From assembly GCA_040757835.1 (NCBI GenBank), contig JBFLWJ010000008.1, positions 58,464 through 122,463 of the forward strand: a stretch of 64,000 nt of DNA. The letters run 5' to 3'. The notes under the pieces are model-generated. The model was not told the origin of the DNA. It did not search any database and saw nothing but the letters and a program-made list of their open reading frames with translations. The position numbers were made by a program, and so were the translations under genes. The stretch comes from Actinomycetota bacterium. Its GTDB lineage: Bacteria; Actinomycetota; Geothermincolia; Geothermincolales; RBG-13-55-18. Shown piece by piece: positions 42,084 through 64,000 of this stretch. Within the stretch, counting starts at the first letter, position 1. Every line of letters starts with the position of its first letter.

Positions 42084-42160
42084 AGCCACGGAATCTTCGG
42101 CTATTTCTTCGCCTGCCATTTTCATAAAGACAAAATGCTGGTCGCGATGATCAGGGTCAG

Positions 42161-42332
42161 GGCCCGTCCTGCCCGAAAGGCGGTGTGCTTTGCCGCAAGC
42201 CCCCTGGGTCTTAACTCGGCTCCCTTTGCTAAGACACTGTTTTACTGGAAATATGCCTTTTGGAATAGAATATGCCTGGAGCTACCCGAGAAAGGCCGAT
42301 CTTGCGGCTGTGTCCAACTTGTGCCCATTTCC
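42161..42332 (+). repeat. intergenic repeat family copy A (box1 ggcccgtcctgcccgaaaggcggtgtgctt; box2 gctgtgtccaacttgtgcccatttcc)
   Basis: Two conserved boxes about 125 bp apart, shared with copies at 53527, 54296 and 56450. The 30-bp box1 is identical to copy B. Confidence 0.75.
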
Positions 42333-42377
42333 GGAGAGTGGGAATTGCCTTCATCGCCATTGAAAGCTGCGCAACCG

Positions 42378-43220
42378 TTACAAGTCGGTTCTCTTAAGGC
42401 CTTTCAAGATCTGCTCTATCTGATCCAGGCATTCCTGCTTATCGTAGTTGCCGAACATGTGATATAACTCGGCCATGTATTCCCCTATTCCCATGAATGC
42501 GAAACCCAGGATCTCGGGGTTGGCATCTTCCTTTATCTCCCCCTGTTCCACTGCTTGTCTGATATCCCATATGACCGGCTGCACGATATAGTTGAGGCTC
42601 TCCTTATACTTCTCCACAAAGGTCTGGTTGTCGGAAACGGCTATCCCTCTCAGTTGGTTCATCATGTCCCGCCATTTGGGATAGGCGTCGATGAAAGCAT
42701 CCCCCCTCTTGAGCAGTCGGGGGACTGCCTCCTTTTCCTGCCTGATCCCATCCCATACCTCGTTGAACATCTGGTGGAATATATAGTCCGTGCATTCCAG
42801 GAACAACTCCTCCTTATTGTTGAAATACGTGTAGAACGTGGACTTGCTCATCTGTAACTCGCCGACGATATCCTGGATGCTGACCTTATCGTAACCCTTC
42901 TGCGTGAAGAGCTTCGCCGTTGTATGTATTATCTCTTGCCTCCTGTCGATAGATTTGCCCTTGTTTTCCGGCTGCGATTTCTCCGCCTCAAAACGAGCCA
43001 GCTCATCCTTGATGAACCTTATCGGCATCTTCTCCTCTTCCCGCAGTTTCCTTATAAGCTCGAGCCTCTTCACCTCCTCCTCGGTGTAATAGGCCATGGT
43101 CTTTCCGGTCCGCACATGGGGGGCTATCAGGCCCTCCCTTACGTAATACCTTATGGTGGATTTGGGGATGCCCGTCGATTTCTCGAGCTCGCTTATGGTC
43201 AGGTATTTATGCTTTTCCAA
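42378..43220 (-). CDS. dual-HTH transcriptional regulator (N-terminal MerR-type HTH fused to TetR-type HTH/ligand domain)
   Basis: LTISELEKSTGIPKSTIRYYVREGLI (MerR HTH) followed by RRQEIIHTTAKLFTQKGYDKVSIQDIVGELQMSKSTFYTYFNNKEELF (TetR HTH). GC content is markedly lower than the surroundings. Confidence 0.6.
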   Translation of the reverse strand: MEKHKYLTISELEKSTGIPKSTIRYYVREGLIAPHVRTGKTMAYYTEEEVKRLELIRKLREEEKMPIRFIKDELARFEAEKSQPENKGKSIDRRQEIIHTTAKLFTQKGYDKVSIQDIVGELQMSKSTFYTYFNNKEELFLECTDYIFHQMFNEVWDGIRQEKEAVPRLLKRGDAFIDAYPKWRDMMNQLRGIAVSDNQTFVEKYKESLNYIVQPVIWDIRQAVEQGEIKEDANPEILGFAFMGIGEYMAELYHMFGNYDKQECLDQIEQILKGLKRTDL

Positions 43221-43394
43221 TTCGACTCCTCACAACAGACAATGACTATACTTATTTAAGAGCTATATGCACTGTAAAGTCAAGCGCTAAATACTATCTA
43301 GACAGATGGGAAAGTAAGTAAATTACCATATAGAATGGGGTTTAAAAGCAGTAAACAATGCCCTTGACATATAGCCAAAGCTCTTATAAACTAC

Positions 43395-43430
43395 AGTAAT
43401 GTACCGTACCGTACTATTTATAGTACATGG
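43395..43430. promoter_or_regulatory. operator-like site in the divergent promoter: GTACC direct repeats plus the 7-2-7 inverted repeat GTACTATttATAGTAC
   Basis: atgtaccgtaccgtactatttatagtacatgg lies in an AT-rich region between the regulator gene and the thiolase operon. Confidence 0.4.
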
Positions 43431-43489
43431 AATTACCCGAAATTGCCGGTTATTTTCGAAGGTTTCACGCCGGAGGGAAGGAGGCCCAC

Positions 43490-44692
43490 ATGGAAAAGGG
43501 CGAATTCGCTATCATCGGCACCGGCGAGGTGCCCTGCGGCAACTACCCCGCGCGCTCGGAGTTCGAGATCGCGTACACCGTGGCCCGGGATGCCATCCGC
43601 GATGCGGGGATCGACAAGGACGAGATAGGGGCGGTGGTCTGCGCGCAGCACATCATGTCCAATCCCGACAACGACTACAACACGGAGATGGTCTTCGGGC
43701 GCCTCCCCGAGGCCATCGGCGCCAGGGGCTGCAAGATAACCTGCATGACCTCGTCGGGGGGCGCATCCAGCTTCTCGCTCAGGAAGACCGCGGAGGGCAT
43801 ACTCAGCTCTGGAGAGACGGACACGGTGCTCGTGGTGCACGCTCAGCGCTTCTCGACCTTCACCCCCAACGAGCAGGCCAAGTATTTCTCAATCGCCGGT
43901 TCGGATGTGGAGTGGGAGGTCCCATACGGGATGACCTACAACGCGCTGGCGGCTATGGTCACCCAGGGATACATGGCCTACACGGGCACCACTATGGAGC
44001 AGGTGGCCGCGGTGTGCGTGGCCAACCGCAAATGGGCCATGCTGCAGCCCAACGCCATGTTCAACCAGAAGGAGATCACGGTGGAGAAGGTGCTCTCCAG
44101 CCGCATGGTGGCCTATCCACTCACCGCCTTCATGTGCAACGTGCTGGGGGACGGGGGCACCGCCTTCGTCATGACCACGGCTGAGAAGGCTAGAATGGTT
44201 TCCGACCGTCCGGTATATATCCTCAGCGATTCCTCCAGCTATTCCCACCGCACCATCACGAGGTCGAAGTCCAGGGACCTGGGCAAGATGGGCGAGAACA
44301 TGGCACCGGTTGCCAACGCCGCCTACGAGAGAGCCGGCCTGGGGCCTGAGGACATGGACATCTACCAGGTCTACGGTTCTTACCCCACCCTGCAACTCAT
44401 CGTCATGGACGCCCTGGGCATCTGCGAGCCGGGGAAGTCGGGCGCCCTGGTGGAATCCGGCGAGACCTCGCCCGGCGGCAAGTACCCGGTGACCACCAAC
44501 GGGGAGGCTCTCTCCTTCGGGCATACAGGGACCGGGGTGGGCATCGCCCTCCTGGCCGAGTCGGTGCGGCAGCTCCAGGGCAAAGCGGGCAAGGCCCAGG
44601 TGGAGGGGGCGAAGTTCCTCATCGAGAACACCGGCGGCGGCGCCTTCATGGACTGCCACTTCACCGTCCTGGGCAGCGAGATACCTGGTTGA
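43490..44692 (+). CDS. SCP-x-type thiolase-like protein (lipid-transfer protein)
   Basis: Thiolase fold with a Cys-containing N-terminal region (IIGTGEVPCGNY), C-terminal GHTGTGVG and NTGGG. RBS GAAGGAGG. Confidence 0.75.
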   Translation: MEKGEFAIIGTGEVPCGNYPARSEFEIAYTVARDAIRDAGIDKDEIGAVVCAQHIMSNPDNDYNTEMVFGRLPEAIGARGCKITCMTSSGGASSFSLRKTAEGILSSGETDTVLVVHAQRFSTFTPNEQAKYFSIAGSDVEWEVPYGMTYNALAAMVTQGYMAYTGTTMEQVAAVCVANRKWAMLQPNAMFNQKEITVEKVLSSRMVAYPLTAFMCNVLGDGGTAFVMTTAEKARMVSDRPVYILSDSSSYSHRTITRSKSRDLGKMGENMAPVANAAYERAGLGPEDMDIYQVYGSYPTLQLIVMDALGICEPGKSGALVESGETSPGGKYPVTTNGEALSFGHTGTGVGIALLAESVRQLQGKAGKAQVEGAKFLIENTGGGAFMDCHFTVLGSEIPG

Positions 44693-44746
44693 GCAGGAGG
44701 CGGCGGCAAGAACGTGTTGATCTGAAGATATTAGGAGGATCGTGAG

Positions 44747-45205
44747 ATGAGCGAAGAAAAGGTGAGCATCAAGGACCTGCTGGGCCTTTCCGACGAGGAG
44801 ATGCGGAAGCCGCTGCCCGTCCCGACCAAGTGGTCGCAGCCCTTCTGGGACGCGGCGAAGGAGCACCGTCTTGTCCTCAAGAAATGCTCCGCGTGCGGCA
44901 ATATCGACCACCCGCCCTACCTGTACTGCACTGCCTGCCAGGCGGACGAGCATGAATGGATCGAGGCTTCGGGCAAGGCGACCCTCTACTCATATGCCGT
45001 GAACCACTTCGGGGTGCCCTTCCCCTTCTGGGATGATATGCCGTATGTCCTGGCCATGGTCGACCTCCCGGAAGGTGTGCGCATGATCTCCAACATCGTT
45101 GAGTGCGACCTCGAAAAGCTCGTAAACGGCATGGAGCTGGAGGTGGTCTTCGAGGAAGTTTCCGGCGATATCACCTTGCCCAAATGGAAGCCGGCCAAAA
45201 AGTAG
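44747..45205 (+). CDS. DUF35 OB-fold/zinc-ribbon protein (thiolase partner)
   Basis: CSACGNIDHPPYLYCTACQ rubredoxin-like zinc ribbon followed by an OB-fold. The canonical partner of SCP-x thiolases. Confidence 0.7.
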   Translation: MSEEKVSIKDLLGLSDEEMRKPLPVPTKWSQPFWDAAKEHRLVLKKCSACGNIDHPPYLYCTACQADEHEWIEASGKATLYSYAVNHFGVPFPFWDDMPYVLAMVDLPEGVRMISNIVECDLEKLVNGMELEVVFEEVSGDITLPKWKPAKK

Positions 45206-45227
45206 ACGGCGCGAGAAAGGAGCGGGT

Positions 45228-46022
45228 ATGCAAGATTATCAATACCTCATCTACGAGATAGAAGAGGATATCGGGAAGATAACCCTGAACCGACCCAAGA
45301 AGCGCAACGCCCTCAACGCGGAGCTCATCGCCGAGCTCAAGGACGCGGTGCCGCGCATGAACGCGGAGCCCGAGGTACGCTGCGCCATCATCACCGGCGC
45401 CGGCGAGAAAGCATTCTGCGCCGGCGCGGACCTCCCCATCTTCGACACCCTGCAGGAGGTCGAGAAGGCCTACGCGTACCTTCGCAACGACGGCGGGACC
45501 ATCACCCGTGCCCTGGAGACGGCGGAGTTTCCGTGGATAGCGGCGGTGAAGGGTGCCTGCGTGGCGGGCGGATTGGAGCTGGCCTTGTGCTGCGACATGA
45601 TCGTGGCGGGCGAGAACTCCTTGTTCGGCGTGCTTGAGATAAACATCGGGCTGCTTCCCGGGTGGGGAGGTACCGTGCGCCTGCCCAGGGCTATACCGGT
45701 GCGCAAGGCCAAGGAGCTTCTCCTCACCGGGGCCATGATCGACGCCCAGGAGGCGTACCGCCTGGGATTGCTGAACAAGGTGGTCGCGGTGGAAAAGGTG
45801 GAGGAAGAGGCCATGAACATGGCGCGCAGCGTCGCCTCCAAGTCAAAGGCGGCCGTACGCGCCGGGATGAACATCGTCAACAACTCGCTGGCATGTGCCT
45901 CCATAGACGCCGCCCTGGCCCTGGAGCGTGGCACCATCATGACCCTGGTCGGCGCGGAGGAGACGCGCAAGTACCTGGAGCCGGCCATCCGCATGATGCA
46001 GGACATGGAGAAGAAGGACTGA
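45228..46022 (+). CDS. enoyl-CoA hydratase/isomerase (crotonase family)
   Basis: ITLNRPKKRNALN...GAGEKAFCAGADL...AAVKGACVAGGLELALCCD crotonase motifs. Confidence 0.85.
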   Translation: MQDYQYLIYEIEEDIGKITLNRPKKRNALNAELIAELKDAVPRMNAEPEVRCAIITGAGEKAFCAGADLPIFDTLQEVEKAYAYLRNDGGTITRALETAEFPWIAAVKGACVAGGLELALCCDMIVAGENSLFGVLEINIGLLPGWGGTVRLPRAIPVRKAKELLLTGAMIDAQEAYRLGLLNKVVAVEKVEEEAMNMARSVASKSKAAVRAGMNIVNNSLACASIDAALALERGTIMTLVGAEETRKYLEPAIRMMQDMEKKD

Positions 46023-46035
46023 GAAGGGAGCGTAT

Positions 46036-47196
46036 ATGGACTTCTTGCTGACGGAGGAACAGAAGATGCTCCGGGAAACGTTCCGTGAGTTCTGCCGGAA
46101 AGAGATCACCAAGGAGTATGTGCGGTGGCTGGACGAGAACTGCGACTTCCCCCCCCAGGACATGGTCGAGAAGATTGCGGACCTCGGGTTCTTCGGTATC
46201 TCCATCCCTGAAGAATATGGAGGAGCGGGCGCGGGCATGTTCGACCTCTGCGTGGCCCTGGAGGAGCTGGCCACGGCGAGCGTCGCCATGGCCATATCCA
46301 TGGGGCTCACGCCCGCCTTCGGCGGCAGGCCCGTTGCCGAGCTCGGCACGGAGGAGCAGAAGCGGACGTACCTCCCGCCGATCGCCGAGGGGAAGGAGAA
46401 GTGGTGCATGGCCCTGACGGAGCCCGCCGGGGGAACCGATATCCTGGGCGCCATCGCCACCACCGCTGAAAGGGACGGGGACGAATACGTGGTGAACGGC
46501 GCGAAGATGTTCATCTCCGGTGCCCACGTGGCGGACTGGATACTGCTGGTCGCCATCACCGACAAGGAAGTCAAACGCTCGAAGGGCCTCTCCGTCTTCA
46601 TCGTCGATGCCCGCAGCCCAGGCATCACCATCAACCTCGTCCGCAAGGTCGGCATACACGCCTGCGGCACCACGGAGATATTCTTCGAGGACGTGAGGGT
46701 CCCGGCGGCCAACCTGCTGGGGACCGAGAACATGGGCTGGTACCACATCCTGGGGACCCTGAACCCGGAACGTATCGGGACCTCCATGCTCTCGCTGGGT
46801 ATCGCCAAGGCGGCCTTCGACGACGCCCTGCAGTACGCCAAGGAGCGCACGGCCTTCGGCAAGCCCATCGGGCAGTTCCAGATCATCCAGTATTACCTGG
46901 CGGATATCGCCATCGAGATCGAGAACGCCCGCAACCTCATCTACAAGTGCGCGTGGCTCTGCGACGCGGGGGAACGCTTCGACGTGGAGGCCACCATGGC
47001 CAAGATCGTGGCCTGCCGCGCCTCGGAGAAGGCGGCCCTCCACGGCATGGAGATATTCGGCGGGTACGGTTTCACCATGGAATACGATATGCAGCGGCAC
47101 TTCCGGGACTACAAGCAGATGATGTTCAGCCCCATCTCCGACGAGATGAGCATGAACTATATCGCTCAGAGCTGCGGCCTGCCTAAATCATATTGA
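46036..47196 (+). CDS. acyl-CoA dehydrogenase
   Basis: ACAD fold with ALTEPAGGTD and C-terminal IFGGYGFTMEYDMQRHFRD. Confidence 0.85.
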   Translation: MDFLLTEEQKMLRETFREFCRKEITKEYVRWLDENCDFPPQDMVEKIADLGFFGISIPEEYGGAGAGMFDLCVALEELATASVAMAISMGLTPAFGGRPVAELGTEEQKRTYLPPIAEGKEKWCMALTEPAGGTDILGAIATTAERDGDEYVVNGAKMFISGAHVADWILLVAITDKEVKRSKGLSVFIVDARSPGITINLVRKVGIHACGTTEIFFEDVRVPAANLLGTENMGWYHILGTLNPERIGTSMLSLGIAKAAFDDALQYAKERTAFGKPIGQFQIIQYYLADIAIEIENARNLIYKCAWLCDAGERFDVEATMAKIVACRASEKAALHGMEIFGGYGFTMEYDMQRHFRDYKQMMFSPISDEMSMNYIAQSCGLPKSY

Positions 47197-47226
47197 GACT
47201 GCTGAGGGAAAAAGGAGGGGACCTGG

Positions 47227-48783
47227 ATGTATACATTAGGGGATGTGCCAAGAAAAGGGAATACGCTCTATCCACACAAGGAGGCGATGGTCTTCGGGGA
47301 TGTCAGGATCACCTACGCGCAGATGGAGGAACGGGTGAACCGCCTCACCAATGCCATCCTGGGCCTCGGATTCAAGAAGGGCGACCGCCTGACCATACTC
47401 GCAGAGAACACTTTCAAATACATGGAGGTCTATTTCGCGGCAGGTAAAGCCGGGATGAGCGTCACCCCACTGAACTTCCGCCTTTCCGACGGGGAGATCG
47501 TCCATATCGTCAACGACAGCGAGGCTGTCCTCCATCTGGCAGGCGAAGGGTATGAGGAGCGGTCGCTCGGCTTGAAGAAGGAGCTCGAGAAGATCAGGGG
47601 ATGGATATCGCTGGACAAGGAAAGCGAAGGCTACCTCTACTACGAGGACCTCCTTTCCGGTGCCTCACCCGACGATCCCTGGATCGATGTGGACGAGGAC
47701 GAGATGGCGATACTCATGTACACGGGGGGCACCACCGGGCTCCCCAAGGGGGTCATGCTCTCCCACCGCAACCTGATGACCGCGGCCTACGGCTGCATCC
47801 TGGTGTCGGGCTTCGATGCCGACGACGCCACCTGCTTCGTCCTGCCCCTGTTCCATATCTCCCTGTGGCCTGCCCTGTGCCTGCTCATGATGGGGGGCAA
47901 GGTGGTCATAATGCCCCGGCCAGACCTGGTGGAGATATTGCGGCTGATCCAGGACGAGAAGTGCACGCATATCAACCTCGTACCCACCATCTACGGCTGG
48001 CTCCTGAACCTCCCCCAGGTCGATGAGTACGACCTCTCCAGCCTGAGGATCATGACCTATGCCGGGAGCCCCTTCCCGCCCGATGTGCTCAAGCGGTGCA
48101 TCAACAAGTTCGGCAACATCTTCGCGCAGGGGTACGGGCTGACCGAGGCGGCGCCGGTGGTTTCATTTCTCATACCCGAGGACCACGTGCTCGAGGGGGA
48201 TGAAAGGCTTACCAGGCGGCTTACCAGCGCCGGCAAGGAGGCCCACGTGGTGGAGGCCAGGGTGGTGGATGAGAACGACGAGCCGGTCAAGGTGGGCGAG
48301 ATCGGAGAGATCGTGGCCCGCGGCAGGAACATCATGATGGGCTACTGGAAGAACCCCGAGCTCACGGCGCAGGTGCTCAGGGGCGGCTGGCTGCATACCG
48401 GCGACATGGGCACGGTCGACGAGGACGGATACATATACCTCATGGACCGCAAGGCGGACATGATCATCACCGGCGGCGAGAACGTCTATCCCAAGGAGGT
48501 CGAGGACGTGCTCTACGAGCACCCGGCGGTACTGGAAGCCGCGGTGGTGTCCGCGCCGGACGAGAGGTGGGGAGAGAAGGTCCAGGCGGTGGTCGCCCTG
48601 AAGGAGGGGGCCTCCGCCAGCGAGGAGGAGCTCATCGCTCACTGCAAGAAGGGTCTCGCCGGTTATAAATGCCCTAAAGCCGTGCAGATATGGGATTCCC
48701 TTCCCAAGACCCCGATCGGAAAGATCGTCAGAAAGGATATAAAGAAAGCTTTCTGGGGCGACCAGGAAAAGAAAATCGGATAA
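47227..48783 (+). CDS. AMP-dependent acyl-CoA synthetase/ligase
   Basis: AMP-binding motif MYTGGTTGLPKGV, a C-terminal GWLHTGD segment and the conserved Lys region (PKTPIGKIVRK). Confidence 0.85.
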   Translation: MYTLGDVPRKGNTLYPHKEAMVFGDVRITYAQMEERVNRLTNAILGLGFKKGDRLTILAENTFKYMEVYFAAGKAGMSVTPLNFRLSDGEIVHIVNDSEAVLHLAGEGYEERSLGLKKELEKIRGWISLDKESEGYLYYEDLLSGASPDDPWIDVDEDEMAILMYTGGTTGLPKGVMLSHRNLMTAAYGCILVSGFDADDATCFVLPLFHISLWPALCLLMMGGKVVIMPRPDLVEILRLIQDEKCTHINLVPTIYGWLLNLPQVDEYDLSSLRIMTYAGSPFPPDVLKRCINKFGNIFAQGYGLTEAAPVVSFLIPEDHVLEGDERLTRRLTSAGKEAHVVEARVVDENDEPVKVGEIGEIVARGRNIMMGYWKNPELTAQVLRGGWLHTGDMGTVDEDGYIYLMDRKADMIITGGENVYPKEVEDVLYEHPAVLEAAVVSAPDERWGEKVQAVVALKEGASASEEELIAHCKKGLAGYKCPKAVQIWDSLPKTPIGKIVRKDIKKAFWGDQEKKIG

Positions 48784-48800
48784 GGATTCAGGAGGTTATC

Positions 48801-50165
48801 ATGGCTAAGAAAGACAATCCCTTCAAAAACCTGCTCAAGCCGATCAAGATCGGTCCGGTCGAGCTCAAGCACCGTATGGTGCTGGCTCCAATGAACGACA
48901 CCCTGTCCGGCCACAATGGCGAGGCGACTGAGCAGATGATCTCCTATTACGCCGCGCGGGCTAAGGGCGGGGCGGCAATGGTCATCACCGGCGCGATCAT
49001 GGGGACAAAACTGGCATCGCAATTCGTATGGGGGCGCAACCTGTACTGTTTCCATCCCGGGCACATCCAGGGGCTGAAGCTGCTGACCGACCGCATCCAT
49101 TATTTCGGTTCGAACGCCTGCGCCCAGATCACCATCGGGTTCGGACGCCAGGGACATTCCGCCGACCACCACGAGCTCGCTCCCGCTGCCACCGGGGGCC
49201 TTCCTTATGAGATAGCGCTCGAAAAAGGCCCCAAGGCCATCGAGATCTCCTGGAGGAACATCGAGCATCCCCGCTCCTTCCTGGTGGGCCAGATGACCCG
49301 GGAGATGACCATCGACGAGATCCACAGCGAACAGAAGGAGTTCGCCCGCAGCTGCCAGTTGCTGGTCATCGCCGGGTTCGATGCCATCGAGATCCACGCG
49401 CCGCACGGATACCTCGAGCACCAGTTCCTGTCGCCCTTCTCCAACAAGCGGACGGACATGTACGGGGGGGAATGGAGAAACCGCAAGCGCTTCCTGAACG
49501 AGGTCACCGAACAGGTACGTTATGCGGTAGGCTCGGGCGTCGCCCTGGGGGTGCGCATCAGTGCCGAGGAGCACATGGAGGGAGGTCTTACCCGCGAGGA
49601 GATGATCGACGTCGGTAGAGACCTCGAGGAACGCGGTATCGATTACCTGAGCCTCTCCGACGGCGGCGGATACGAGGAGGGCGGGCACCTCGTCCCCGAC
49701 AAAGACCGGGCCAAGCATATTCCTGAACACGGCAGGGACTTCAAGAAGGCCATCAAGATCCCGGTGATGGTCGCCTCCCAGCACGACCCGGTCAAGGCGG
49801 ACAAGGATATCGGGGACGGGATGTTCGATCTCTCGGCCCTGGGACGCCAGCTGTTCATCGACCCCGAGTACCCCAACAAGGTAACGGAGAACCGCCCCGA
49901 TGATATCAACAGGTGCCGTTACTGCCACACCTGTCTTGGCATATCCCTGGCCGGGGCCGGTATCGCATGTCCGTACAACCCGGAACTGGGCCGTGAGTAC
50001 GCCAACCCGGAGTACATGATCGGACCACGCGCGGAACACGAGATCATCATCCCGCGCGGCATGCTCGCCGGTGACATGCCGGCCTTGGACCGGCCCTGGT
50101 GGAAGCCGGAATATCCGGTTATCGAGAAGGCCTGGAGACCTTTCCGCGGCCCGGGCAAGAGATAG
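48801..50165 (+). CDS. NADH:flavin oxidoreductase, Old Yellow Enzyme family (enoate/2,4-dienoyl-CoA reductase-like, with C-terminal Cys cluster)
   Basis: FKNLLKPIKIGPVELKHRMVLAPM N-terminus, HAPHGYLEHQFLSP active-site region and C-terminal CRYCHTCLG...CPYN cysteines. Confidence 0.75.
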   Translation: MAKKDNPFKNLLKPIKIGPVELKHRMVLAPMNDTLSGHNGEATEQMISYYAARAKGGAAMVITGAIMGTKLASQFVWGRNLYCFHPGHIQGLKLLTDRIHYFGSNACAQITIGFGRQGHSADHHELAPAATGGLPYEIALEKGPKAIEISWRNIEHPRSFLVGQMTREMTIDEIHSEQKEFARSCQLLVIAGFDAIEIHAPHGYLEHQFLSPFSNKRTDMYGGEWRNRKRFLNEVTEQVRYAVGSGVALGVRISAEEHMEGGLTREEMIDVGRDLEERGIDYLSLSDGGGYEEGGHLVPDKDRAKHIPEHGRDFKKAIKIPVMVASQHDPVKADKDIGDGMFDLSALGRQLFIDPEYPNKVTENRPDDINRCRYCHTCLGISLAGAGIACPYNPELGREYANPEYMIGPRAEHEIIIPRGMLAGDMPALDRPWWKPEYPVIEKAWRPFRGPGKR

Positions 50166-50223
50166 GGAGGATACCGGCAAGAGTCGGGGGCTGTTAATCG
50201 CCTCAGGATAAAAGGAGTAGATC

Positions 50224-51237
50224 ATGAGCGACGGATTCGAGAAGGACGGTTTCTTCAAGATCGACCCCGAGGCTCACCTGCTGGGGGAGATGGAGCCCAT
50301 CAACCACTTCCCCGGGGTGCAGATGTGGTGGCGGGCGATAGAGAGCATCAGGCGTCCCTTGTTGTTGGGCTTGAAGCCCCCCGTATTCGAGGGATTGGAA
50401 CCGAAGGAGTTGAACAAGGACGAGGACCCCGAAGCCCTGCTGGAGTACATGGACAAGTACGGGGTGGACATCGCCTGCTGCCTGCCCGAGTCCATGATGG
50501 ACACCACCGGCTACACCAGCCGCTGGATGTCGAACGGGGCCATGGCCAGGGTGGTGGACGCCCACCCCGACCGCTTCATGTACCAGCCCAACATCAGCCC
50601 CATCAAGTTCAAGGGCGTGAAGAACACCATCTGGGAGCTGGAGTACTGGGTGAAGGAGCGGGGGGCGAAGATATTCAAGTTCTATCCCCCCGAGGATACC
50701 TACATCAACGACCCCGACCTCTGGCCCTTCTACGAGAAGGCGGAGGAGCTCCAGATCGTGCTCGACATCCACACCGGCTTCTGCTGGGTGCCCCCCGGAA
50801 AGAGCAAGTACGCCCTGCCCCTGCAGCTGGACGACGTGGCCCGGGACTTCCCCGACTTAAAGCTCGTCGCCTTCCACATGGGCTACCCCTACTGCGACGA
50901 CCTCAACATGGTGGCCATGGGGCACCCCAACGTCTACCCCTGCCTCAGCCTGCTCATCCCCTGGGCGATAGGGGCGCCGCGCAAGTTCGCCAAGATCCTG
51001 GGGGAGGCCATGCGCTTCGTGGGCCCGGACCGCATCATCTGGGGATGCGACTATGCCGGCTTCGGCGTGCAGATAAAGACGGCGGTGATGGGCCTGCGCG
51101 AGTTCCAGTTCCCCGAGGACATGCAGGAGGATTACGGCTATCCCGCCCTCACCGACGAGGACCGCGCCAAGATCTTCGGGCTCAACCTGGCCGGCCTGCT
51201 GGGGGTGGACGCATCGAAGCGCAGGATCAAGACGTGA
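50224..51237 (+). CDS. amidohydrolase-2 family TIM-barrel hydrolase/decarboxylase-like protein
   Basis: 337 aa with HTGF, FHMGYPY and CDYAGFG metal-ligand-like positions typical of PF04909. Confidence 0.6.
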   Translation: MSDGFEKDGFFKIDPEAHLLGEMEPINHFPGVQMWWRAIESIRRPLLLGLKPPVFEGLEPKELNKDEDPEALLEYMDKYGVDIACCLPESMMDTTGYTSRWMSNGAMARVVDAHPDRFMYQPNISPIKFKGVKNTIWELEYWVKERGAKIFKFYPPEDTYINDPDLWPFYEKAEELQIVLDIHTGFCWVPPGKSKYALPLQLDDVARDFPDLKLVAFHMGYPYCDDLNMVAMGHPNVYPCLSLLIPWAIGAPRKFAKILGEAMRFVGPDRIIWGCDYAGFGVQIKTAVMGLREFQFPEDMQEDYGYPALTDEDRAKIFGLNLAGLLGVDASKRRIKT

Positions 51238-52205
51238 TGAGGCAAGAGCGCCGACTGGATGTTCATCACCATCTTCTCCCCCCGGAGTACCTGTCCGCCC
51301 TGAACAAGAGAGGCATAACCGAGTTCGCGGGCCGTCCCTTTCCCGAGTGGAGCCCGGAGGTCTCCCTCTCGCTCATGGACCGGCATGGTATAGAGGCCGC
51401 TATAACATCGGTTTCATGCCCGGGAGTATATTTCGGGGACATGGGGCTTGCCAGGGACCTCGCCCGCATGTGCAACGAATATGCCGCGGAGCTTTGTCGC
51501 GGAGAAGACAAGCGATGGGGAGCCTTCGCCGTGCTCCCGCTGCCTGACCTGGATGCCGCGATGGCGGAGCTCGAGTATGCGCTCGATACCCTGCAGCTCG
51601 ACGGCGTCTCCCTGCTCGCGAGCATCGGCAGGCGATATCTTGGCGACCCCTGCTTCGATGAAATATTCGCCGAGCTGAACAGGCGGAGGGCCGTGGTGTT
51701 CATACACCCCAGCGTCCCGCCGGGAAGCGATGTCCCGGAGTTGGACCTGCCATATTTTCTCGTGGAGTTCGTCTTCGATACCACCCGGGCAATAGCCAAC
51801 CTCCTTTTCGGCGGAACCATGGAGAGATGCGCGGACATACGCTTCATCGTGGCTCATGCCGGTGGGACTGTTCCCTACCTGGTGTTCAGGCTGTCCCTGG
51901 GGCAGTTTCTTCCCGGCCTGCAGGAGAAAGTGCCTGAGGGAGTCGCGGCCTATCTCGGCCGCCTTTACTACGACACCGCCCTTTCGGCGTCACCCGCCGC
52001 CCTCCGTTCGCTGCAGGAGCTGGTGGATAGCTCTCGTATAGTCTTTGGTAGCGATTATCCTTTCGCTCCCGAGCTGGCGACCGCGATCACCATCTCAGGC
52101 CTGGAGGACTACGACGGGTTCGACGAGCGGGAACTGAGAGCGGTCTATGGCGAGAACGCTCTATCTCTATTCCCCCGCCTGCAACCGACGGAAAGGAGAG
52201 GATAG
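51237..52205 (+). CDS. amidohydrolase-2 family protein (second paralog)
   Basis: LDVHHHLLPPEY N-terminal His motif, HPS, VAHAGG and GSDYPF. Start overlaps the upstream stop (TGATG). Confidence 0.65.
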   Translation: MRQERRLDVHHHLLPPEYLSALNKRGITEFAGRPFPEWSPEVSLSLMDRHGIEAAITSVSCPGVYFGDMGLARDLARMCNEYAAELCRGEDKRWGAFAVLPLPDLDAAMAELEYALDTLQLDGVSLLASIGRRYLGDPCFDEIFAELNRRRAVVFIHPSVPPGSDVPELDLPYFLVEFVFDTTRAIANLLFGGTMERCADIRFIVAHAGGTVPYLVFRLSLGQFLPGLQEKVPEGVAAYLGRLYYDTALSASPAALRSLQELVDSSRIVFGSDYPFAPELATAITISGLEDYDGFDERELRAVYGENALSLFPRLQPTERRG

Positions 52206-52208
52206 CCC

Positions 52209-53399
52209 GTGAGGGAGACCGAGATAGTCAATACTTCCACCCCGGACGGCCCCTTCAAGGTAGGGGTAAGGACCGAGTGGCTGGAGTTCGAGGGACGCGA
52301 CCTGCGCGTGGTCATCTGGTATCCCGCCCGGGAGGTGGAGAAAGCCGAGCCCCATGTATTCCGGAGCGATGATCTGGGATCCGCGGTGAGAGGGTCGGCG
52401 GTGCTGGAGGCCCCGCCCGACAGGTCGGGCGCGCCCTACCCCATGATACTCTACTCGCCGGCCCTGACCGCTCCCGCGGACGCCTCGGTATTCTATACCC
52501 AGAACCTGGCTAGCCACGGCTATGTCGTCGCCGCCGTCGATCACCTGGATGCAAACCACTTGGACCTGGTCGTCCGGGACGGGAACTGGAAAAACCTCCT
52601 CCGATACTTTCCGAGGATGTTCAAAGAGTTCGTCACCGGCGATCCGAGCGTAACGGTCCTCGTGATGTTCAGCGGCCATTTTCGCAGTACCGAGTTCGGG
52701 CTGAAATACCGGCCGCATGAGGCGAGGCTGGCGATCGACAATGCCGCTATATGGAACGGGGACGCCTCATCGCCGCTGTACGGCATGATCGACCTCGATA
52801 CAATAGGCATGACCGGTCATTCCCTCGGGGCGTGGACCACCCTCCTACTCGGGGGCATGTCCCTCAAGTACGACGAGAGCTTATGTGCCGGCGACTCCGA
52901 TATCAACAGTGGGTGCATCGCCGATCATGACCCCGTCTGCACCCGGTCCGCCAGATCCCTTGAGAGCCCCTACGCGCTGCGGGACGAAAGGATCAAGGCG
53001 ATACTCCCCATGGCTTCGCCGATCTTCCACCACGATGCGCCGGATAACGCAAGGGAGATCAAGGTACCGTTGATGTTCCTTACCGGCGATGATAAGAGAT
53101 GGGAAGCCACTTTCTACCGCCAGAAAGAGGTGTACGACAGCGCGCCAGGCCCCAAACATTTCGTGGTCATCCGGGACACCGATCACTATGTGATCTGCGA
53201 CATGTGGCTGAAATCCCGCGTTATCCTTGCTAGATTCCGGCTACCCAAATTCAAGCAGAATTTCCAGGAGAAGGCCCAGGCTTACAAGGATTACTCAGTG
53301 GCTTTTTTCGATCTCTATCTCAAGGGCGATGACAGTAGAGCGGACGTCCTGCAAGCGCCGAACCAACCTCTTGTAAAACAGGTATGGAGCGAGATATGA
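52209..53399 (+). CDS. alpha/beta-hydrolase fold enzyme (PAF-acetylhydrolase/dienelactone-hydrolase-like)
   Basis: GHSLG nucleophile elbow (IGMTGHSLGAWTT). GTG start after AGGAGAGG. Confidence 0.6.
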   Translation: MRETEIVNTSTPDGPFKVGVRTEWLEFEGRDLRVVIWYPAREVEKAEPHVFRSDDLGSAVRGSAVLEAPPDRSGAPYPMILYSPALTAPADASVFYTQNLASHGYVVAAVDHLDANHLDLVVRDGNWKNLLRYFPRMFKEFVTGDPSVTVLVMFSGHFRSTEFGLKYRPHEARLAIDNAAIWNGDASSPLYGMIDLDTIGMTGHSLGAWTTLLLGGMSLKYDESLCAGDSDINSGCIADHDPVCTRSARSLESPYALRDERIKAILPMASPIFHHDAPDNAREIKVPLMFLTGDDKRWEATFYRQKEVYDSAPGPKHFVVIRDTDHYVICDMWLKSRVILARFRLPKFKQNFQEKAQAYKDYSVAFFDLYLKGDDSRADVLQAPNQPLVKQVWSEI

Positions 53400-53526
53400 A
53401 ACACCTGAAGGAGGGGGATGCCCTCATCCACATCCTCTATGAAGTGGAGCAAGCGGCGGCAGGCCGTATAGATTATATGCCGTGGGACCGTCTTTATCTA
53501 TGCGTCTGGCTTCAGTGGCTATATAT

Positions 53527-53697
53527 GGCCCGTCCTGCCCGAAAGGCGGTGTGCTTCACGGGTACCCTTGTTGCATGTGGCCTCTCTTCTTGTCAGATGC
53601 AGCTCTTGAGCTGGTAATTCAAGGATGATCTGCTGGATGTCGTCAGCATCCTGAAATGACGGGATTGCCCACTGTGTTTAAAACGTGCCCATTTTCG
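53527..53697 (+). repeat. intergenic repeat family copy B
   Basis: box1 ggcccgtcctgcccgaaaggcggtgtgctt (identical to copy A). box2 cactgtgtttaaaacgtgcccattttcg lies about 127 bp downstream. Confidence 0.75.
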
Positions 53698-53786
53698 ATG
53701 GCCAACCTGGCCGGCCTGACAGTCATATAGAATTGGTATAATTATCGCAGAGCGGAGAGCAAAGTAATCGATGGGTAAGAAAGCAT

Positions 53787-53918
53787 GGAGATCAACGACC
53801 TGGTTCATGATTATTTCAACGTTGATGCCGATGAAGTATGGTCGACCGTGGAGAAGGATCTGCCTGCCCTCAAGGCCGACATACTCACCATCCTAAGGGA
53901 TATTGAAGCTTGACAATT
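53787..53918 (+). CDS. possible 43-aa acidic small protein
   Basis: ATG preceded by AAGAAAG. Translation MEINDLVHDYFNVDADEVWSTVEKDLPALKADILTILRDIEA. It lies downstream of an extended -10 promoter (TGGTATAAT near 53735). Too short for the ORF track. Confidence 0.25.
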
Positions 53919-54030
53919 CTCACGCAATCCAATGCAACTGCATGAATATAGTTACTGGTAGAACGAACTTGGATTTCGTTGGAAACGCCAATGCGGTGGC
54001 TGCCTAAAAACCGAAAAAGGAGGTTCGGCG

Positions 54031-54243
54031 ATGCCTGAATCAAGCAATTGTCCCAAGTGCGGCGGGGCTATGATCCCGGGGTCGCTCAAAGAGCGAACGT
54101 TATATGGTCCCTCTCCATACCAGTGGGTTCCATCAGATGATGCTCCTTTCCCCATGAAGGGAGCTCCAAGCAATCGACATGATATCTCGATATATCGTTG
54201 TGAGGATTGTGGATACCTGGAATTATATGCAATATCCGGCTGA
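54031..54243 (+). CDS. 70-aa zinc-ribbon protein
   Basis: Strong RBS AAAAAGGAGG. CPKCGG...CEDCG tetra-Cys ribbon. Confidence 0.5.
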   Translation: MPESSNCPKCGGAMIPGSLKERTLYGPSPYQWVPSDDAPFPMKGAPSNRHDISIYRCEDCGYLELYAISG

Positions 54244-54295
54244 TATAAATGACTTGTCTGGTTCTCTATGACGAGTAGATCAGAAGACTCACATG

Positions 54296-54458
54296 CCTCG
54301 AAAGGCGCTGTGCTTGGCAAAATATCTGGCGGAACGGTGTTCTTTGCTCTCCGCCTATGTATATCTTAAGCGGCGTTTTTTCGGCTAAAGGCTGCAAAAT
54401 ACATAGGAGCTTGGAAACCGCCCGATTCCCGGCTGTGTCCAGATTGTGCCTATTTTCT
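54296..54458 (+). repeat. intergenic repeat family copy C
   Basis: box1 cctcgaaaggcgctgtgctt and box2 gctgtgtccagattgtgcctattttct. TGTCCA-N18-ATAATT forms a plausible sigma70 promoter about 100 bp upstream of the AbiEi start. Confidence 0.7.
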
Positions 54459-54555
54459 GATAATTGCTGAGTGTCCAAGATATTCGGATAAGAACCTTTA
54501 CAAAACATGTCTTTATAGCTAATATTATTAATTATAAAAGCATGATACGTAAAGG

Positions 54556-55371
54556 ATGAAAGAGATGGTTGTCAATGAGTTCCTGGAACGGCACCCGGTG
54601 TTCACCCTTACAGAGTTCAAGGCTTTCCTGGATGAGAACGCATCGGTGAACAAGTGGACGCAGCAAAACCTCCTCGCATATTACAAGAAGAAAGGGAGAA
54701 TACTCGGGGTCAAGCGGGGGCTTTACGCCGTGGTACCCCTAGGCATGGAGCCGGACAGCTTCCTTCCCGATCCATTCCTTCTTGCGGCCAAGATGGCGGA
54801 GGATGCAGTGCTCTCATATCATACGGCCCTGGAATTCTACGGTTCTGCCTATTCCGTTCACAATCGCTTCATATACTTGTCTGGGGTTCAGAGAAAAGAA
54901 CTATCCTGGAGGGGATACGTTTTTAGAAGCGTCCCCTTCCCGGGAGCCCTGCTCAAGAAGAGGAAAGAGTCGTTCGGTATAAATGCAGAAGACCGAAGGG
55001 GTCTTGGAGTGAAGGTCACGGGCTTGGAGCGCACCATGGTCGACGTTTTCGACCGGCCCGACCTCGGGGGCGGCTGGGAAGAGATATGGCGCAGCCTGGA
55101 CCTCGTGGACTATCTGAAACTGGAAGAGGTGGTGAGGTACGCCCTGCTCCTCGACAACTCCACGACGGTGGCAAAAGTCGGCTTCTACTTAGAGCAGAAC
55201 AAGGAACGCCTGATGGTGGATGACTCGCATCTCGATCGCCTGAGGAAAAAGATGCCCCTTTCCCCCCGCAAAATGGAGCGCACAGGAAGCCAGCCCGGCA
55301 AATTCGTATCCGCTTGGAACCTGGCAGTTCCCAGGCCAGTTTACGAAAAGGTATGGGAGGAGGTCACATGA
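54556..55371 (+). CDS. abiEi: AbiEi-family type IV toxin-antitoxin system antitoxin (transcriptional regulator domain)
   Basis: N-terminal AbiEi_4-like winged helix (VFTLTEFKAFL...GRILGVKRGLYAVVP). 271 aa. Overlaps the downstream gene by ATGA. Confidence 0.7.
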   Translation: MKEMVVNEFLERHPVFTLTEFKAFLDENASVNKWTQQNLLAYYKKKGRILGVKRGLYAVVPLGMEPDSFLPDPFLLAAKMAEDAVLSYHTALEFYGSAYSVHNRFIYLSGVQRKELSWRGYVFRSVPFPGALLKKRKESFGINAEDRRGLGVKVTGLERTMVDVFDRPDLGGGWEEIWRSLDLVDYLKLEEVVRYALLLDNSTTVAKVGFYLEQNKERLMVDDSHLDRLRKKMPLSPRKMERTGSQPGKFVSAWNLAVPRPVYEKVWEEVT

Positions 55372-56336
55372 TCCTTTCCCGGGAAGGGCTTGCGCGGGCG
55401 GTGGCCTCGAGCGGCTTCCGCGAGGATTACCTGGAGAAGAGCATCAGGTTGCTGTATCTCCTGGAGGCGATCAAGGATAATCCGTTCCTGAGATCGAGAT
55501 TGGTTTTAAAGGGAGGAACGGCACTGAACCTCTTTATCATGGAACTGCCCCGCCTTTCCGTGGACATCGACCTCAATTACATCGGCTCTCCGGAAAGGGG
55601 GGTCATGCTGGAGGAACGGCCCCTGGTCGAACGCACCCTCCAGGCTATCTGCGGCCGCGAGGGATTCCGGGTGAGGCGCATACCAAGCGATCATGCGGGA
55701 GGTAAGTGGTTATTGAGGTTTGATAGCACGCTGGGGAGAGGAGGCTCTCTCGAACTCGACATCAACTTCCTTATGAGAATCCCTCTTTGGGATCCAAATA
55801 CTATTGATTCTCAAGCCCTAGGCGATCATCAAGTAGGTGGCATCGCTGTACTGGACAAACATGAGCTTATGGCGGGTAAAGCCGTTGCCCTGCTGTCGCG
55901 CAGGGCGGCCCGTGACCTCTTCGATTGCCATGGGTTGCCAAGAGCCCTATCCCTTGTTGCCGACAAGCTGCGTCTGGCCTTTGTCGTAAATGGAGGCATG
56001 AGCCGGAGGGATTGGCGCGATGTATCGCTTGACGACATAGGATACGACATCAATGAATTGCATAACGTTCTCCTGCCCACTCTCCGCAATGATTATGCAT
56101 CGGGTATCAAGGATGTCAGTTCTTGGGCAGACCGCCTGGTGCTCGAGTGCCGGGAAGAGCTTTCGGTCCTCTTGCCCTTGCGAGCGAACGAGGTCGATTT
56201 TCTCACGTCTTTGAACGAGGAAGGAGAGATACTCCCAGGGCTGCTGACATCAGATAAATATCTGGCACGTAAGATCGAGAGGCAACCTGGGTTGCTCTGG
56301 AAGGCTCAAAATGTCAAGGAATACAGAAGAACATAG
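55368..56336 (+). CDS. abiEii: AbiEii/AbiGii-family nucleotidyltransferase toxin (DUF1814)
   Basis: Hallmark LKGGTALNLF...RLSVDIDLNY nucleotidyltransferase motif. 322 aa. Confidence 0.8.
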   Translation: MILSREGLARAVASSGFREDYLEKSIRLLYLLEAIKDNPFLRSRLVLKGGTALNLFIMELPRLSVDIDLNYIGSPERGVMLEERPLVERTLQAICGREGFRVRRIPSDHAGGKWLLRFDSTLGRGGSLELDINFLMRIPLWDPNTIDSQALGDHQVGGIAVLDKHELMAGKAVALLSRRAARDLFDCHGLPRALSLVADKLRLAFVVNGGMSRRDWRDVSLDDIGYDINELHNVLLPTLRNDYASGIKDVSSWADRLVLECREELSVLLPLRANEVDFLTSLNEEGEILPGLLTSDKYLARKIERQPGLLWKAQNVKEYRRT

Positions 56337-56449
56337 TTGCTCAACACAAAATGTACCCTCACTTTATCTGTTCTCGAGATATAATTCACTGCGCATCGTG
56401 AATATAATACGATATGGTAATATATGTTAAGCTCGTGCACCTCGAAAGG

Positions 56450-56602
56450 CGTTGTGCTTACCCACCAATCCTGCGAATCCAATAATTGTAGGCACCACAA
56501 ACACATGCTTTTAGCTGGGACAATATGTCCGTTGTGACCTATTCCGTTTTTTTCTCGAAAAGTGTGATTTGCCCTGCTGTGTCCATATTGTGCCCATTTT
56601 CG
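56450..56602 (+). repeat. intergenic repeat family copy D
   Basis: box1 cctcgaaaggcgttgtgctt and box2 gctgtgtccatattgtgcccattttcg. TGTCCA-N17-TATATT forms a promoter-like element upstream of qatA. Confidence 0.7.
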
Positions 56603-56762
56603 TATATTTGGGCATTTACTAGGTACTCTTGTGGATTAATTGCGCTAATTGCCTATCTGACACCTGAATCAATGGTGTGCTTTCAGCACCACAGATGTAT
56701 CCTATACTCTGTAGAAGGGGTTGTAGAATACTGTAAAACCTATTTTACATGAGGGGGATGCT

Positions 56763-58562: not shown

Positions 58563-59266
58563 TGGGAACATCGTCTGATTATTCCGGATCAACTGGAGGC
58601 CCTTGGACTCGTTTCAAACGAGCGGCAACAGATTTCGCGAAATACGGCGGTGAGGAACGTGCCCGTCGCGTTATGGCTCGCCACGTTGCCACATTAGGTG
58701 GCGCAAGAAGAGCGTCAGAATCTGCAAAAGCTGGCATATCAACTGCTCAGAGATTAGGCGAGGCATTAACAAGGCTTGGGACATTAGGATTAGATGCAAC
58801 ATTACAATCATATAATCTTGATTACTTGATCGGCAAAGACAGATTCGATGTTCTGCAAGCCCTTATTGAAATAATTGCTCCGCCAGGTACAGATCTAGAA
58901 AGTGAAGCAGCCCGCAATGCAGCTTTAGATGTTATTGAAGAAGTATTCGGCGAGGGTAATTCTTATGAAGATTTGTCGTCTACTCAGTTTGACCACGATG
59001 GGCTTGTCAATGCATTAGAGTTGTTTATTGCAGCATATGTCTATAACCGGGCCATTCCACTTATCGAAAAGCGGCTTAGCGAGTTAAGTGCAGGCGAGGC
59101 TGATAATCGTGATAAAGCTCTACATATCTTCATTAAACAACTTGTCAGGCTGAGGTTAAAAGACATGGATCCTTTGCAGATAGACTGGAAGGGGACAGAA
59201 GGTCATAGCATTATCCAACGGCTAATCCGTGGCTTATATAGCCAATTGGAATCTTGGGATGAATGA
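58562..59266 (+). CDS. qatB: QatB (unknown-function component of QatABCD)
   Basis: 235-aa ORF overlapping the qatA stop (TAATG) and the qatC start (ATGA). Its position and size match QatB. Confidence 0.55.
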   Translation: MGTSSDYSGSTGGPWTRFKRAATDFAKYGGEERARRVMARHVATLGGARRASESAKAGISTAQRLGEALTRLGTLGLDATLQSYNLDYLIGKDRFDVLQALIEIIAPPGTDLESEAARNAALDVIEEVFGEGNSYEDLSSTQFDHDGLVNALELFIAAYVYNRAIPLIEKRLSELSAGEADNRDKALHIFIKQLVRLRLKDMDPLQIDWKGTEGHSIIQRLIRGLYSQLESWDE

Positions 59267-60585: not shown

Positions 60586-61346
60586 TGGAATATCTTGATA
60601 CTCATTGCCATATAACGAAATATCGTCAGCCGCTACGTATTATAGAGAGTGCAGAAGAGAGCAAGGTTGGCATTATTGCAGTGACTGAGCTTCCGAGCGA
60701 ATTTAGAGCATTGGTGTTGAAGTTGGGTTCAAGGCCAGGAGCAATGCCAGCTTTGGGGTTGCACCCTTTGCTTGCTAAGAAGGCTTCACCTATTGAAATG
60801 AGCCTTTTTAAACACATGCTAGCTAGAACAAAGTTTGTAGGAGAGGTTGGACTTGACTTCTCACAGCAAGACATTTCTACGCGAAGACGCCAGATAGAAG
60901 TATTTGAAGCGATACTAATGCAACCTGGAATACAAGAGAAAATCCTAACAGTGCACTCTAGGCGAGCTGAGACGGAAACAATTGATTACATTATCCAGTC
61001 TCATGTCGCAGCCGTATTGCATTGGTACTCAGGCCCTGTTAAGTACATAGAGCGTGCACTTGATGCCGGCATCTATTTTTCAATAAATCTAGCAATGATG
61101 CGAAGCTCTCATGGAAAGCGAGTTCTAGCTGCCGTGCCCCAAGATAAAATACTGCTTGAGACAGATGGGCCATACATTAATATCGGGCCAAGACCGATAG
61201 AGCCCAAGGATATTCCATCGGTAGTCAACATGCTAACTAATTGTTGGGATTTGACACCAAAAGAAGTCTTAGAACAAGTCCGTAACAATATACTAGCGTT
61301 AAGAATGCGGGTGAAAACTGAAGACGAAATTGTAGATGACCCTTAA
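60582..61346 (+). CDS. qatD: QatD, TatD-family metal-dependent DNase
   Basis: TatD motifs DTHCH, GEVGLD, HSR and ETDGPY. 254 aa. Confidence 0.85.
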   Translation: MMEYLDTHCHITKYRQPLRIIESAEESKVGIIAVTELPSEFRALVLKLGSRPGAMPALGLHPLLAKKASPIEMSLFKHMLARTKFVGEVGLDFSQQDISTRRRQIEVFEAILMQPGIQEKILTVHSRRAETETIDYIIQSHVAAVLHWYSGPVKYIERALDAGIYFSINLAMMRSSHGKRVLAAVPQDKILLETDGPYINIGPRPIEPKDIPSVVNMLTNCWDLTPKEVLEQVRNNILALRMRVKTEDEIVDDP

Positions 61347-63871: not shown

Positions 63872-64000
63872 GGCAACCTCCTTTCGGTCGTTCCCCATTA
63901 AGGGGAATGGTTTACGGATAAACTTGTGGCGGCCTCACGGGAGACCGCCACCTCGAGACAGGCATCCCTTCCTGCCTGGTGGCGCCCTGCCCCGATATGG

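Follow-up and report, generated by a model that had tools for sequence, protein, structure and literature searches.

A 64,000-nt stretch of the genome of an Actinomycetota bacterium (RBG-13-55-18; GCA_040757835.1, contig JBFLWJ010000008.1, forward-strand positions 58,464 to 122,463), here called the window, carries four copies of an intergenic element of ∼175 bp with conserved ends. The element is most likely a site-specific recombination site of a new kind that heads each gene cassette in uncultured Actinomycetota. We consider it somewhat probable that the element is a double-stranded recombination module, composed of a crossover core and accessory repeats, and that a recombinase encoded in trans uses it to build integron-like arrays of defense cassettes. 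The evidence lies in the conservation pattern of the element, in the layout of the cassettes that it heads, and in homology breakpoints that fall at one end of it.

Four copies of the element in the window

A reading made from the sequence alone (the sequence-only reading) had reported four co-oriented copies of a two-box repeat. A pattern for the 5′ box matches four times, always on the + strand (42171, 53537, 54296, and 56440), against 0.04 matches expected from shuffled sequences, which bears out both the number and the orientation. The 3′ box pattern, with up to three mismatches, matches three times (42307, 54432, and 56576; 0.00 expected). The 3′ box of copy B (53670–53700, CACTGTGTTTAAAACGTGCCCATTTTCG) is more diverged than those of copies A, C, and D, yet lies in register when aligned. 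The family thus stands where it was first placed, with the correction that the 5′ box of copy D is at 56440 rather than 56450. The four copies are:

42159..42343, + strand: element copy A; core ∼42161-42192 (GGCCCGTCCTG-CCCGAAA-GGCGGTGTGCTTT), 3′ box 42307-42333; nhmmer E=5e-33
53524..53705, + strand: element copy B; core 53527-53558, divergent 3′ box 53670-53700; nhmmer E=9e-32
54283..54466, + strand: element copy C; core 54286-54317, 3′ box 54432-54458; nhmmer E=9e-45
56428..56609, + strand: element copy D; core 56430-56461, 3′ box 56576-56602; nhmmer E=1e-34

Copies C and D precede AbiE and Qat operons, as had been proposed; PADLOC and Pfam identify AbiEi, AbiEii, and QatABCD. Copy A had been described as sitting next to a regulator instead of at a cassette start, and it does lie between convergent genes, a glyoxalase (41727-42083, +) and a MerR/TetR regulator (42378-43220, −). 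The GC content of the whole window is 62%, and that of the 53–61 kb stretch is 46–57%. Open reading frames (ORFs) between and beyond the copies are:

42378-43220, − strand: A–B cargo, regulator with MerR_1 and TetR_N domains (Pfam), divergent from the catabolic operon
43427-53399, + strand: A–B cargo, nine-gene acyl-CoA/thiolase/enoyl-CoA hydratase (ECH)/acyl-CoA dehydrogenase (ACAD)/AMP-ligase/old yellow enzyme (OYE)/amidohydrolase/hydrolase operon (Pfam)
53785..54243, + strand: cassette B cargo, 42-aa ORF (53785-53913) and DUF6487 zinc-ribbon ORF (54031-54243)
54556..56336, + strand: cassette C cargo, AbiEi (54556-55371) and AbiEii (55314-56336) (Pfam; PADLOC AbiEi 7e-108, AbiEii 2e-94)
56763..61346, + strand: cassette D cargo, QatA, QatB, QatC, and QatD (Pfam; PADLOC QatA 1.5e-96, QatB 2e-17, QatC 5e-106, QatD 3e-58)

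Anatomy and conservation

The family comprises 18 distinct full copies, found in the window and in no fewer than 10 further contigs of Actinomycetota metagenome-assembled genomes (MAGs) or metagenomes; truncated copies are additional. The full copies align over ∼175 nt almost without indels. Both boxes of the original description are real, but the unit extends beyond them: conservation also covers a left arm of ∼12 nt just before the 5′ box, one block near the middle, and another that reads GAAAA.

The 5′ core, AAAGCTCAyCTG-CTCGAAAGGCGnTGTGCTTT, is ∼33 bp long and consists of the left arm (AAAGCTCAyCTG), an invariant asymmetric center (CTCGAAA, then GGC), and a right arm (GGCGnTGTGCTTT); within it, AAAGCTCA of the left arm is an imperfect inverse of TGTGCTTT. 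A spacer of ∼115 bp, whose length is kept within 2 bp, separates the core from the 3′ box and contains the central conserved block CTTnAGCTG..TTTTA (with a T-tract). The 3′ box is made of two tandem 11-bp repeats, CTGTGTCCAAAT and yGTGCCCATTT, which share a (C)TGTG/GTGY motif with the right arm of the core (GCTGTGCTTT). Positions invariant across copies are C-n-CGAAAGGC (CNCGAAAGGC), TGTGT, and GTGCC. In all 18 full copies, 128–132 nt separate the core from the second half-site. The gap between the boxes, first put at 124–133 bp, measures 113–116 nt from the end of the 5′ box to the start of the 3′ box, or 128–130 nt from TGTGCTT to GTGCC.

Conservation is concentrated at the two ends. Mean pairwise identity is 52% in the left arm, 80% in the core, 44% in the interior, 87% in the 3′ box, and 29% immediately downstream. 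The window's copy C and AbiE cassette recur in metagenome locus L006, where the interior is 69% identical, the third codon positions of AbiEii 73%, the 3′ box 89%, and the promoter region 90%. Because the interior is about as diverged as those third codon positions, its sequence appears to drift nearly neutrally, with length alone constrained, and to be inherited with the downstream cargo. The same comparison disposes of a second breakpoint at the 3′ box, which the step from 69% interior identity to 90–97% in the flank had seemed to mark; the AbiEii third codon positions are equally diverged.

In ∼6–8 of the 18 copies, the second half-site GCCCA is followed 7–12 nt on by its complement TGGGC (e.g., window 42321-42352, 53685-53706, and 56588-56626, and the copies in L013 and L015). 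This pair may form a short hairpin or a third, inverted half-site, and it overlaps the stop region of the ATPase gene in the ATPase cassettes described below.

Distribution among Actinomycetota

When one genome per species was scanned for the two-box pattern, two Actinomycetota MAGs (L001 and L002) gave homologues, and a metagenome scan added five more loci (L003-L007); two further matches from the latter scan (L008, L009) were discarded as due to chance. The sequence-only reading had asked for copies beyond the window, and relatives do carry them. A recurrent neighbor is an AAA_14/DUF4143 ATPase gene, the PADLOC candidate defense gene PDC-S01 (1e-176). Tracking this neighbor yielded more arrays, in L011, L013, L015-L020, and L021, and L010 added a decayed copy. 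At the window's own locus, L026 is the closest relative, with 92% identity in E1alpha; the window E1alpha is 68% identical to a protein of a ‘Candidatus Geot...’ MAG. Searches of plasmid and phage databases returned no similar DNA, and viral contigs contained no match to the two-box or 3′-box patterns; a single viral match to the core lies inside an ORF and is consistent with chance. We found no description of such an element or array in the literature and databases searched.

Cassette architecture

Read in the orientation of the element, arrays consist of repeated units of one full element and its cargo, followed by a core-only or truncated copy. Within arrays, elements occur in direct orientation only. 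The layouts are:

L013: element, ATPase (reversed), element, MNT-HepT, core
L021: element, ATPase (reversed), element, SLFN_AlbA_2, element, MNT-HepT, core; a second array lies 8 kb away
L015: element, ATPase (reversed), element, MNT and ParE/MazE (reversed), truncated copy
L002: element, ATPase (reversed), core; one core gene on either side
L011: element, ATPase (reversed), degenerate core-like remnant (by eye); one core gene on either side (Peptidase_S9 and ArgRS)
L026: short element, orphan 407-aa gene (reversed), weak core

The array-terminal core-only, truncated, or decayed copies (five arrays) are:

L002 3793-3827
L013 160-223
L021 955-991
L015 8614-8691
L010 9821-9944

In L002, L013, L015, L021, and L026, single cassettes and arrays are bracketed by direct repeats of the core, with the full element heading the unit and a core copy at its distal end. 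The cargo across arrays includes AbiE, Qat, MNT/HepT, MazE/ParE, PDC-S01 ATPase, and SLFN-like genes in both orientations; several cargo genes have no family match. Cassette content also varies around shared flanks, a point that the sequence-only reading had wanted checked. L002 and L015 have a common amine-oxidase flank and different cassettes, and L026 carries a different element-headed cassette, in the same orientation, at the window locus, with no synteny beyond E1alpha. Elsewhere the PDC-S01 ATPase cassette is inserted singly in differing core-gene contexts (L002, L010, and L011).

Breakpoints at the core

Pairwise comparisons place the ends of homology at the core. From CCTCGAAAGG onward, L003 matches L004 at 100% identity, and the two are unrelated upstream. 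Conversely, L003 and L006 are identical upstream, over the end of an ATPase cassette and through GTTGTG, and then continue into different elements and cargo. The interior and 3′ box are thus inherited with the downstream cargo. The AbiE cassette that the window shares with L006 stands behind a different neighbor there, and homology breaks at the 5′ core. Within L015, a solitary truncated copy and the array-terminal copy have a common right flank, and their left flanks switch exactly at CTCGAAA.

The left arm matches the consensus at 9.5 of 12 positions at internal junctions and at 5.6 of 12 in first-in-array copies (p ∼0.01), where the consensus was drawn partly from the same internal copies that were scored. 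This difference fits left arms that belong to the end of the preceding cassette.

Could the boxes instead be short homology arms, with cassettes exchanged by RecA or through transformation and no dedicated recombinase involved? No recombinase was found in cis, copies A and B share a 30-nt identical stretch, and transformation-driven cassette shuffling has a precedent in integrons (PMC12614218). Against such exchange, homologous recombination alone would not keep the box sequences and their fixed spacing while the interior drifts neutrally, and the breakpoints cluster in a single stretch of 7–10 nt. The near-invariant stretch, moreover, is only ∼11–22 nt, which is short for RecA. We judge this explanation rather improbable.

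L015 also contains solitary truncated 5′ parts of the element (CTCGAAAACCGTTGGGCCTG...; 15298-15374 and 18879-18899), which are intergenic and lie beside amine-oxidase paralogues. These may be unoccupied or decayed target sites.

The element is neither coding, structured, nor a consensus promoter

The sequence-only reading compared the repeats to attC-like or cassette-boundary recombination sites. The cassette-boundary half of that comparison is supported: copies head cassettes, homology breaks at the 5′ core, and arrays end in core-only copies. The attC-like half is not. The R″ (RYYYAAC) and R′ (GTTRRRY) motifs are absent from both strands of the 18-copy consensus; GTTGTGC appears in copy D only, through chance at a variable position. 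Folding, which had been suggested as a check for bulged hairpins, gave minimum free energy (MFE) z-scores of −1.2 to +1.8 over both strands, no better than shuffled sequences. RNAalifold on the 18 copies returned no consensus helices, only four trivial pairs (−0.17 and −1.05 kcal/mol for the two strands), and no covariation. The lack of consensus structure and covariation on either strand excludes an attC-like folded site and a structured RNA.

These results bear directly on two alternatives. One would make the copies integron attC sites of an integrase-less cluster (CALIN), as the co-oriented array, cassette-sized units, TA (toxin–antitoxin) and defense cargo, and lack of a nearby integrase would suggest. 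Apart from the missing motif pair and hairpin, the module stays with the downstream rather than the upstream cargo, and the unit is longer than a typical attC; we find a CALIN extremely improbable. The other is that each cassette carries a gene for a small non-coding RNA, or a leader RNA that acts in cis. A constant length of ∼175 nt, conserved ends, and the lack of an ORF would suit an RNA, but Rfam gave no match at the gathering threshold and nothing relevant at E≤10, and no promoter or terminator brackets the element. Together with the folding results, this leaves very little room for an RNA.

No conserved ORF is present either: no frame is open in more than four of the 18 copies, and length varies by 1–2 nt. 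A small reverse-strand ORF (MGTIWTQ...KHSAFRGM*) was dropped, as its frames are inconsistent and in-frame stop codons interrupt it in nearly every copy. A tRNA search found none, so the element is not an att site derived from a tRNA or tmRNA.

A dispersed repeat with multiple short motifs that resemble binding sites also recalls the ends of Tn7- or Mu-type transposons, which carry such motifs, and the copies might be what is left of one end of a transposon that has decayed, or of a family of miniature inverted-repeat transposable elements (MITEs). The element lacks terminal inverted repeats, however: the best 12-mer match between its 5′ end and the reverse complement of its 3′ end scores 7.2, against 7.5 in shuffles. 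Cassette boundaries show no second, inverted end, no transposase is present, and arrays contain direct orientation only. A transposon end or MITE is accordingly very improbable.

Regulation offers another account of the conserved boxes. The sequence-only reading proposed, among other options, a shared promoter-plus-operator module, with a −35/−10 pair overlapping the 3′ box in copies C and D. In its general form, a cis-regulatory module (operator or promoter) bound by one regulator of the host or island would co-regulate the defense and TA cassettes and would have spread by ordinary horizontal transfer and homologous recombination. Two strongly conserved boxes at a fixed spacing do look like protein-binding sites, the tandem 11-bp repeats may resemble response-regulator sites, and forward-facing cargo begins 86–160 nt past the 3′ box. 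The promoter itself did not hold up: the 3′ boxes of copies B, C, and D contain no sigma-70-like site at the consensus scan threshold, the −10 position falls outside the conserved block, and candidate cargo promoters lie 15–40 nt downstream of the element. The neighboring gene converges on the element at copy A, in all ATPase cassettes, and in the L015 MNT/ParE cassette. Because cargo faces either way, the element is not the promoter of its cargo. Core-only array ends and exact breakpoints at the core, furthermore, have no regulatory rationale. On balance we regard a regulatory module as unlikely.

A model of cassette accretion and the points that weigh against it

We propose that a site-specific recombinase encoded elsewhere in the genome, probably a tyrosine recombinase, binds the core and the putatively accessory repeats of the 3′ box. 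A circular cassette, consisting of module and cargo, would recombine with a resident core within CTCGAAA, so that the inserted cassette would keep the full module at its head and leave its own left arm before the next core. Arrays built in this way would be co-oriented and end in a core-only or truncated copy, with cargo that brings its own promoter and may face in either direction. The DNA may bend at the central block of the spacer. In the window, the outcome would be a small defense island (mini-ORFs, AbiE, and Qat) beside the catabolic operon of 11 kb that lies between copies A and B. If circular cassettes integrate at a resident core, this would explain the co-orientation of the copies, the position of the module at the cassette head, the core-only distal copies, and the variable content. 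We infer recombination, and the position of its crossover, from the breakpoints and cassette layouts described above. The suggestion that the copies are tandem att scars from serial island integration comes close to this model as regards serial integration; the copies themselves are not scars but complete, selectively maintained 175-bp modules.

Several observations weigh against this model. Copies A and B do not differ over 30 nt of left arm and core, an outcome not expected from a simple attP × attB exchange, and the acyl-CoA operon between them is syntenic in a relative (L025) with no element on either side. The A–B unit may have another origin, such as conversion or a capture event between two sites. 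No closing core was found after QatD in the window array, and the window's last cassette therefore lacks the bracketing by direct core repeats seen elsewhere. Dyad symmetry in the core is modest, with 6.2 of 13 matches against 4.9 in controls (7–10 of 13 for cassette-type arms). The short variant in L026 is missing ∼85 nt of the interior, so that either the fixed spacing is not absolute or the L026 copy is dead. Terminal copies are 35–125 nt long, and because of this range some may be full elements that have decayed and not attB sites. Domain searches of the tested window ORFs returned no Phage_integrase or other recombinase domain and no transposase domain, and called genes within ∼10 kb of the arrays at other loci yielded no recombinase domain either. 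Neither a clean empty site, sought at the window locus against L026, nor a circular junction was observed. It is on account of the missing closing core, the A/B identity, the element-free L025 operon, the L026 variant, the spread of terminal lengths, and the lack of a recombinase or excision product that we do not place our confidence in the recombination module far above even. A 596-aa ORF in L005 and a 674-aa ORF in the window were considered as a common recombinase; they are unrelated, and the L005 ORF is probably in the wrong frame.

As a less likely variant, to which we give little credence, the PDC-S01 protein (AAA+/PD-(D/E)xK) could itself be the mobilizing enzyme. The idea comes from the unvarying geometry in which its gene abuts the 3′ box, and from an insertion in Nitrospira. 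This insertion, 2.2 kb long, lies in the chromosome of Nitrospira sp. Kam-Ns4a (L022) and holds a PDC-S01 homologue (70% identical) and a 94-aa gene. On both sides of it is an exact direct repeat of 225 bp (5064-5288 and 7300-7524), which duplicates the 3′ end of the upstream gene. The 175-bp element is absent from this Nitrospira locus.

Across Actinomycetota, Nitrospira, Planctomycetota, and Burkholderiales, the PDC-S01 ATPase retains ∼70% identity. Just upstream of its start lies a conserved double palindrome (ACTCATnATATTGAGTA TTATTACTCAAnnnnTTGAGTAA), presumably an autoregulatory operator:

L002 3828-3875: PDC-S01 double palindrome
L006 301-355: PDC-S01 double palindrome
L010, L013, L015, L021, and L022: the same palindrome upstream of the ATPase start

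Comparison with known systems

The element is best classed as a previously undescribed variant of site-specific systems for cassette or island accretion. Integron arrays and their attC sites, including CALINs and defense-carrying chromosomal integrons, likewise consist of small co-oriented cassettes separated by a repeated site, with TA and anti-phage cargo. Their content varies between relatives, and arrays without a nearby integrase occur. Unlike attC, the present site has no hairpin fold or R/L boxes and heads the downstream cargo instead of following the 3′ end of an upstream ORF. Its cargo has its own promoters and faces either direction, its cassettes occur in groups of one to four at many chromosomal sites rather than at one attI platform, and its hosts are uncultured Actinomycetota.

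In Tn4430, the recombinase TnpI binds the IR1-IR2 core of the internal resolution site (IRS) and the adjacent DR1-DR2 motifs, which impose directionality (PMC2847244). This site is the best-described analogue of a core-plus-repeats layout. Like it and other res-type sites, the present element has an asymmetric putative crossover core and, on one side, two direct repeats related to the core half-sites. It differs in the position of the putative accessory repeats, which lie ∼115 bp away from the core and not next to it. No cognate recombinase gene lies beside the site, and the sites flank cargo cassettes rather than resolve cointegrates; binding of core and repeats by one protein is likewise only a prediction for the present element.

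cis-Mobilizable elements (CIMEs) are integrase-less integrative elements that accrete in tandem at att sites. Tycheposon islands also accrete in tandem, with partial-tRNA repeats (bioRxiv 10.1101/2020.12.28.424599). In both, as in our model, each new integration at the shared site displaces the older units inward, repeated att copies remain between the cargo modules, and many units lack an integrase of their own. The repeat described here, in contrast, is neither a tRNA nor the 3′ end of a gene, but a complex 175-bp module under selection, and the units are single operons.

The pdif modules of Acinetobacter are moved by the host XerC/XerD; their 28-bp sites alternate in inverted orientation on plasmids. 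These modules are also small, often carry TA or resistance genes, and are bounded by short sites with the recombinase encoded elsewhere. The present sites are direct, 175 bp long, and chromosomal.

Among well-described systems, integrons alone are known to accumulate single-operon cassettes at a recurring recombination site, and in Actinomycetota they are considered rare or absent. We see a considerable chance, somewhat below even, that uncultured Actinomycetota have an integron-analogous mode of gene capture with a double-stranded core and distant accessory repeats, a recombinase encoded away from the arrays, and small defense and TA arrays seeded at many chromosomal sites. If so, it would be a second and mechanistically different cassette system, and modular capture of defense and TA genes would have evolved more than once. 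The core and 3′ box would then serve as a sequence tag for mining cassette-borne, possibly new, defense genes in metagenomes. Such a system would also imply a recombinase still to be discovered, whose compact target site of ∼33 bp could make it a tool for engineering the genomes of high-GC Gram-positives.

Additional features of the window and its relatives

Directly past QatD, on the − strand (61357-63898), are a 110-aa ORF, a 65-aa ORF, and then a gene for a 665-aa protein. The last has a strong ribosome-binding site before its ATG at 63871 and, by eye, GHKL-ATPase-like motifs. None of the three products has a match in Pfam or PADLOC; they could be further defense cargo.

In the regulator of the acyl-CoA operon, a MerR_1 helix-turn-helix (HTH) and a TetR_N HTH are fused in one protein of 280 aa. 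A GTACCGTACCGTAC repeat is found in the divergent promoter region both in the window (42378-43430) and in the relative L025 (193-1330).

In the high-GC core part of the window, 21978-28687 contains two large adjoining genes with PD-(D/E)xK and UvrD-helicase domains (AddA/AddB-like). These are ordinary repair genes and the sole nuclease- or recombination-related matches in the window. In L026, a gene for a 1491-aa WD40/RCC1-repeat protein (12190-16665) lies between the E1beta and ABC (ATP-binding cassette) transporter genes, which adjoin each other in the window.

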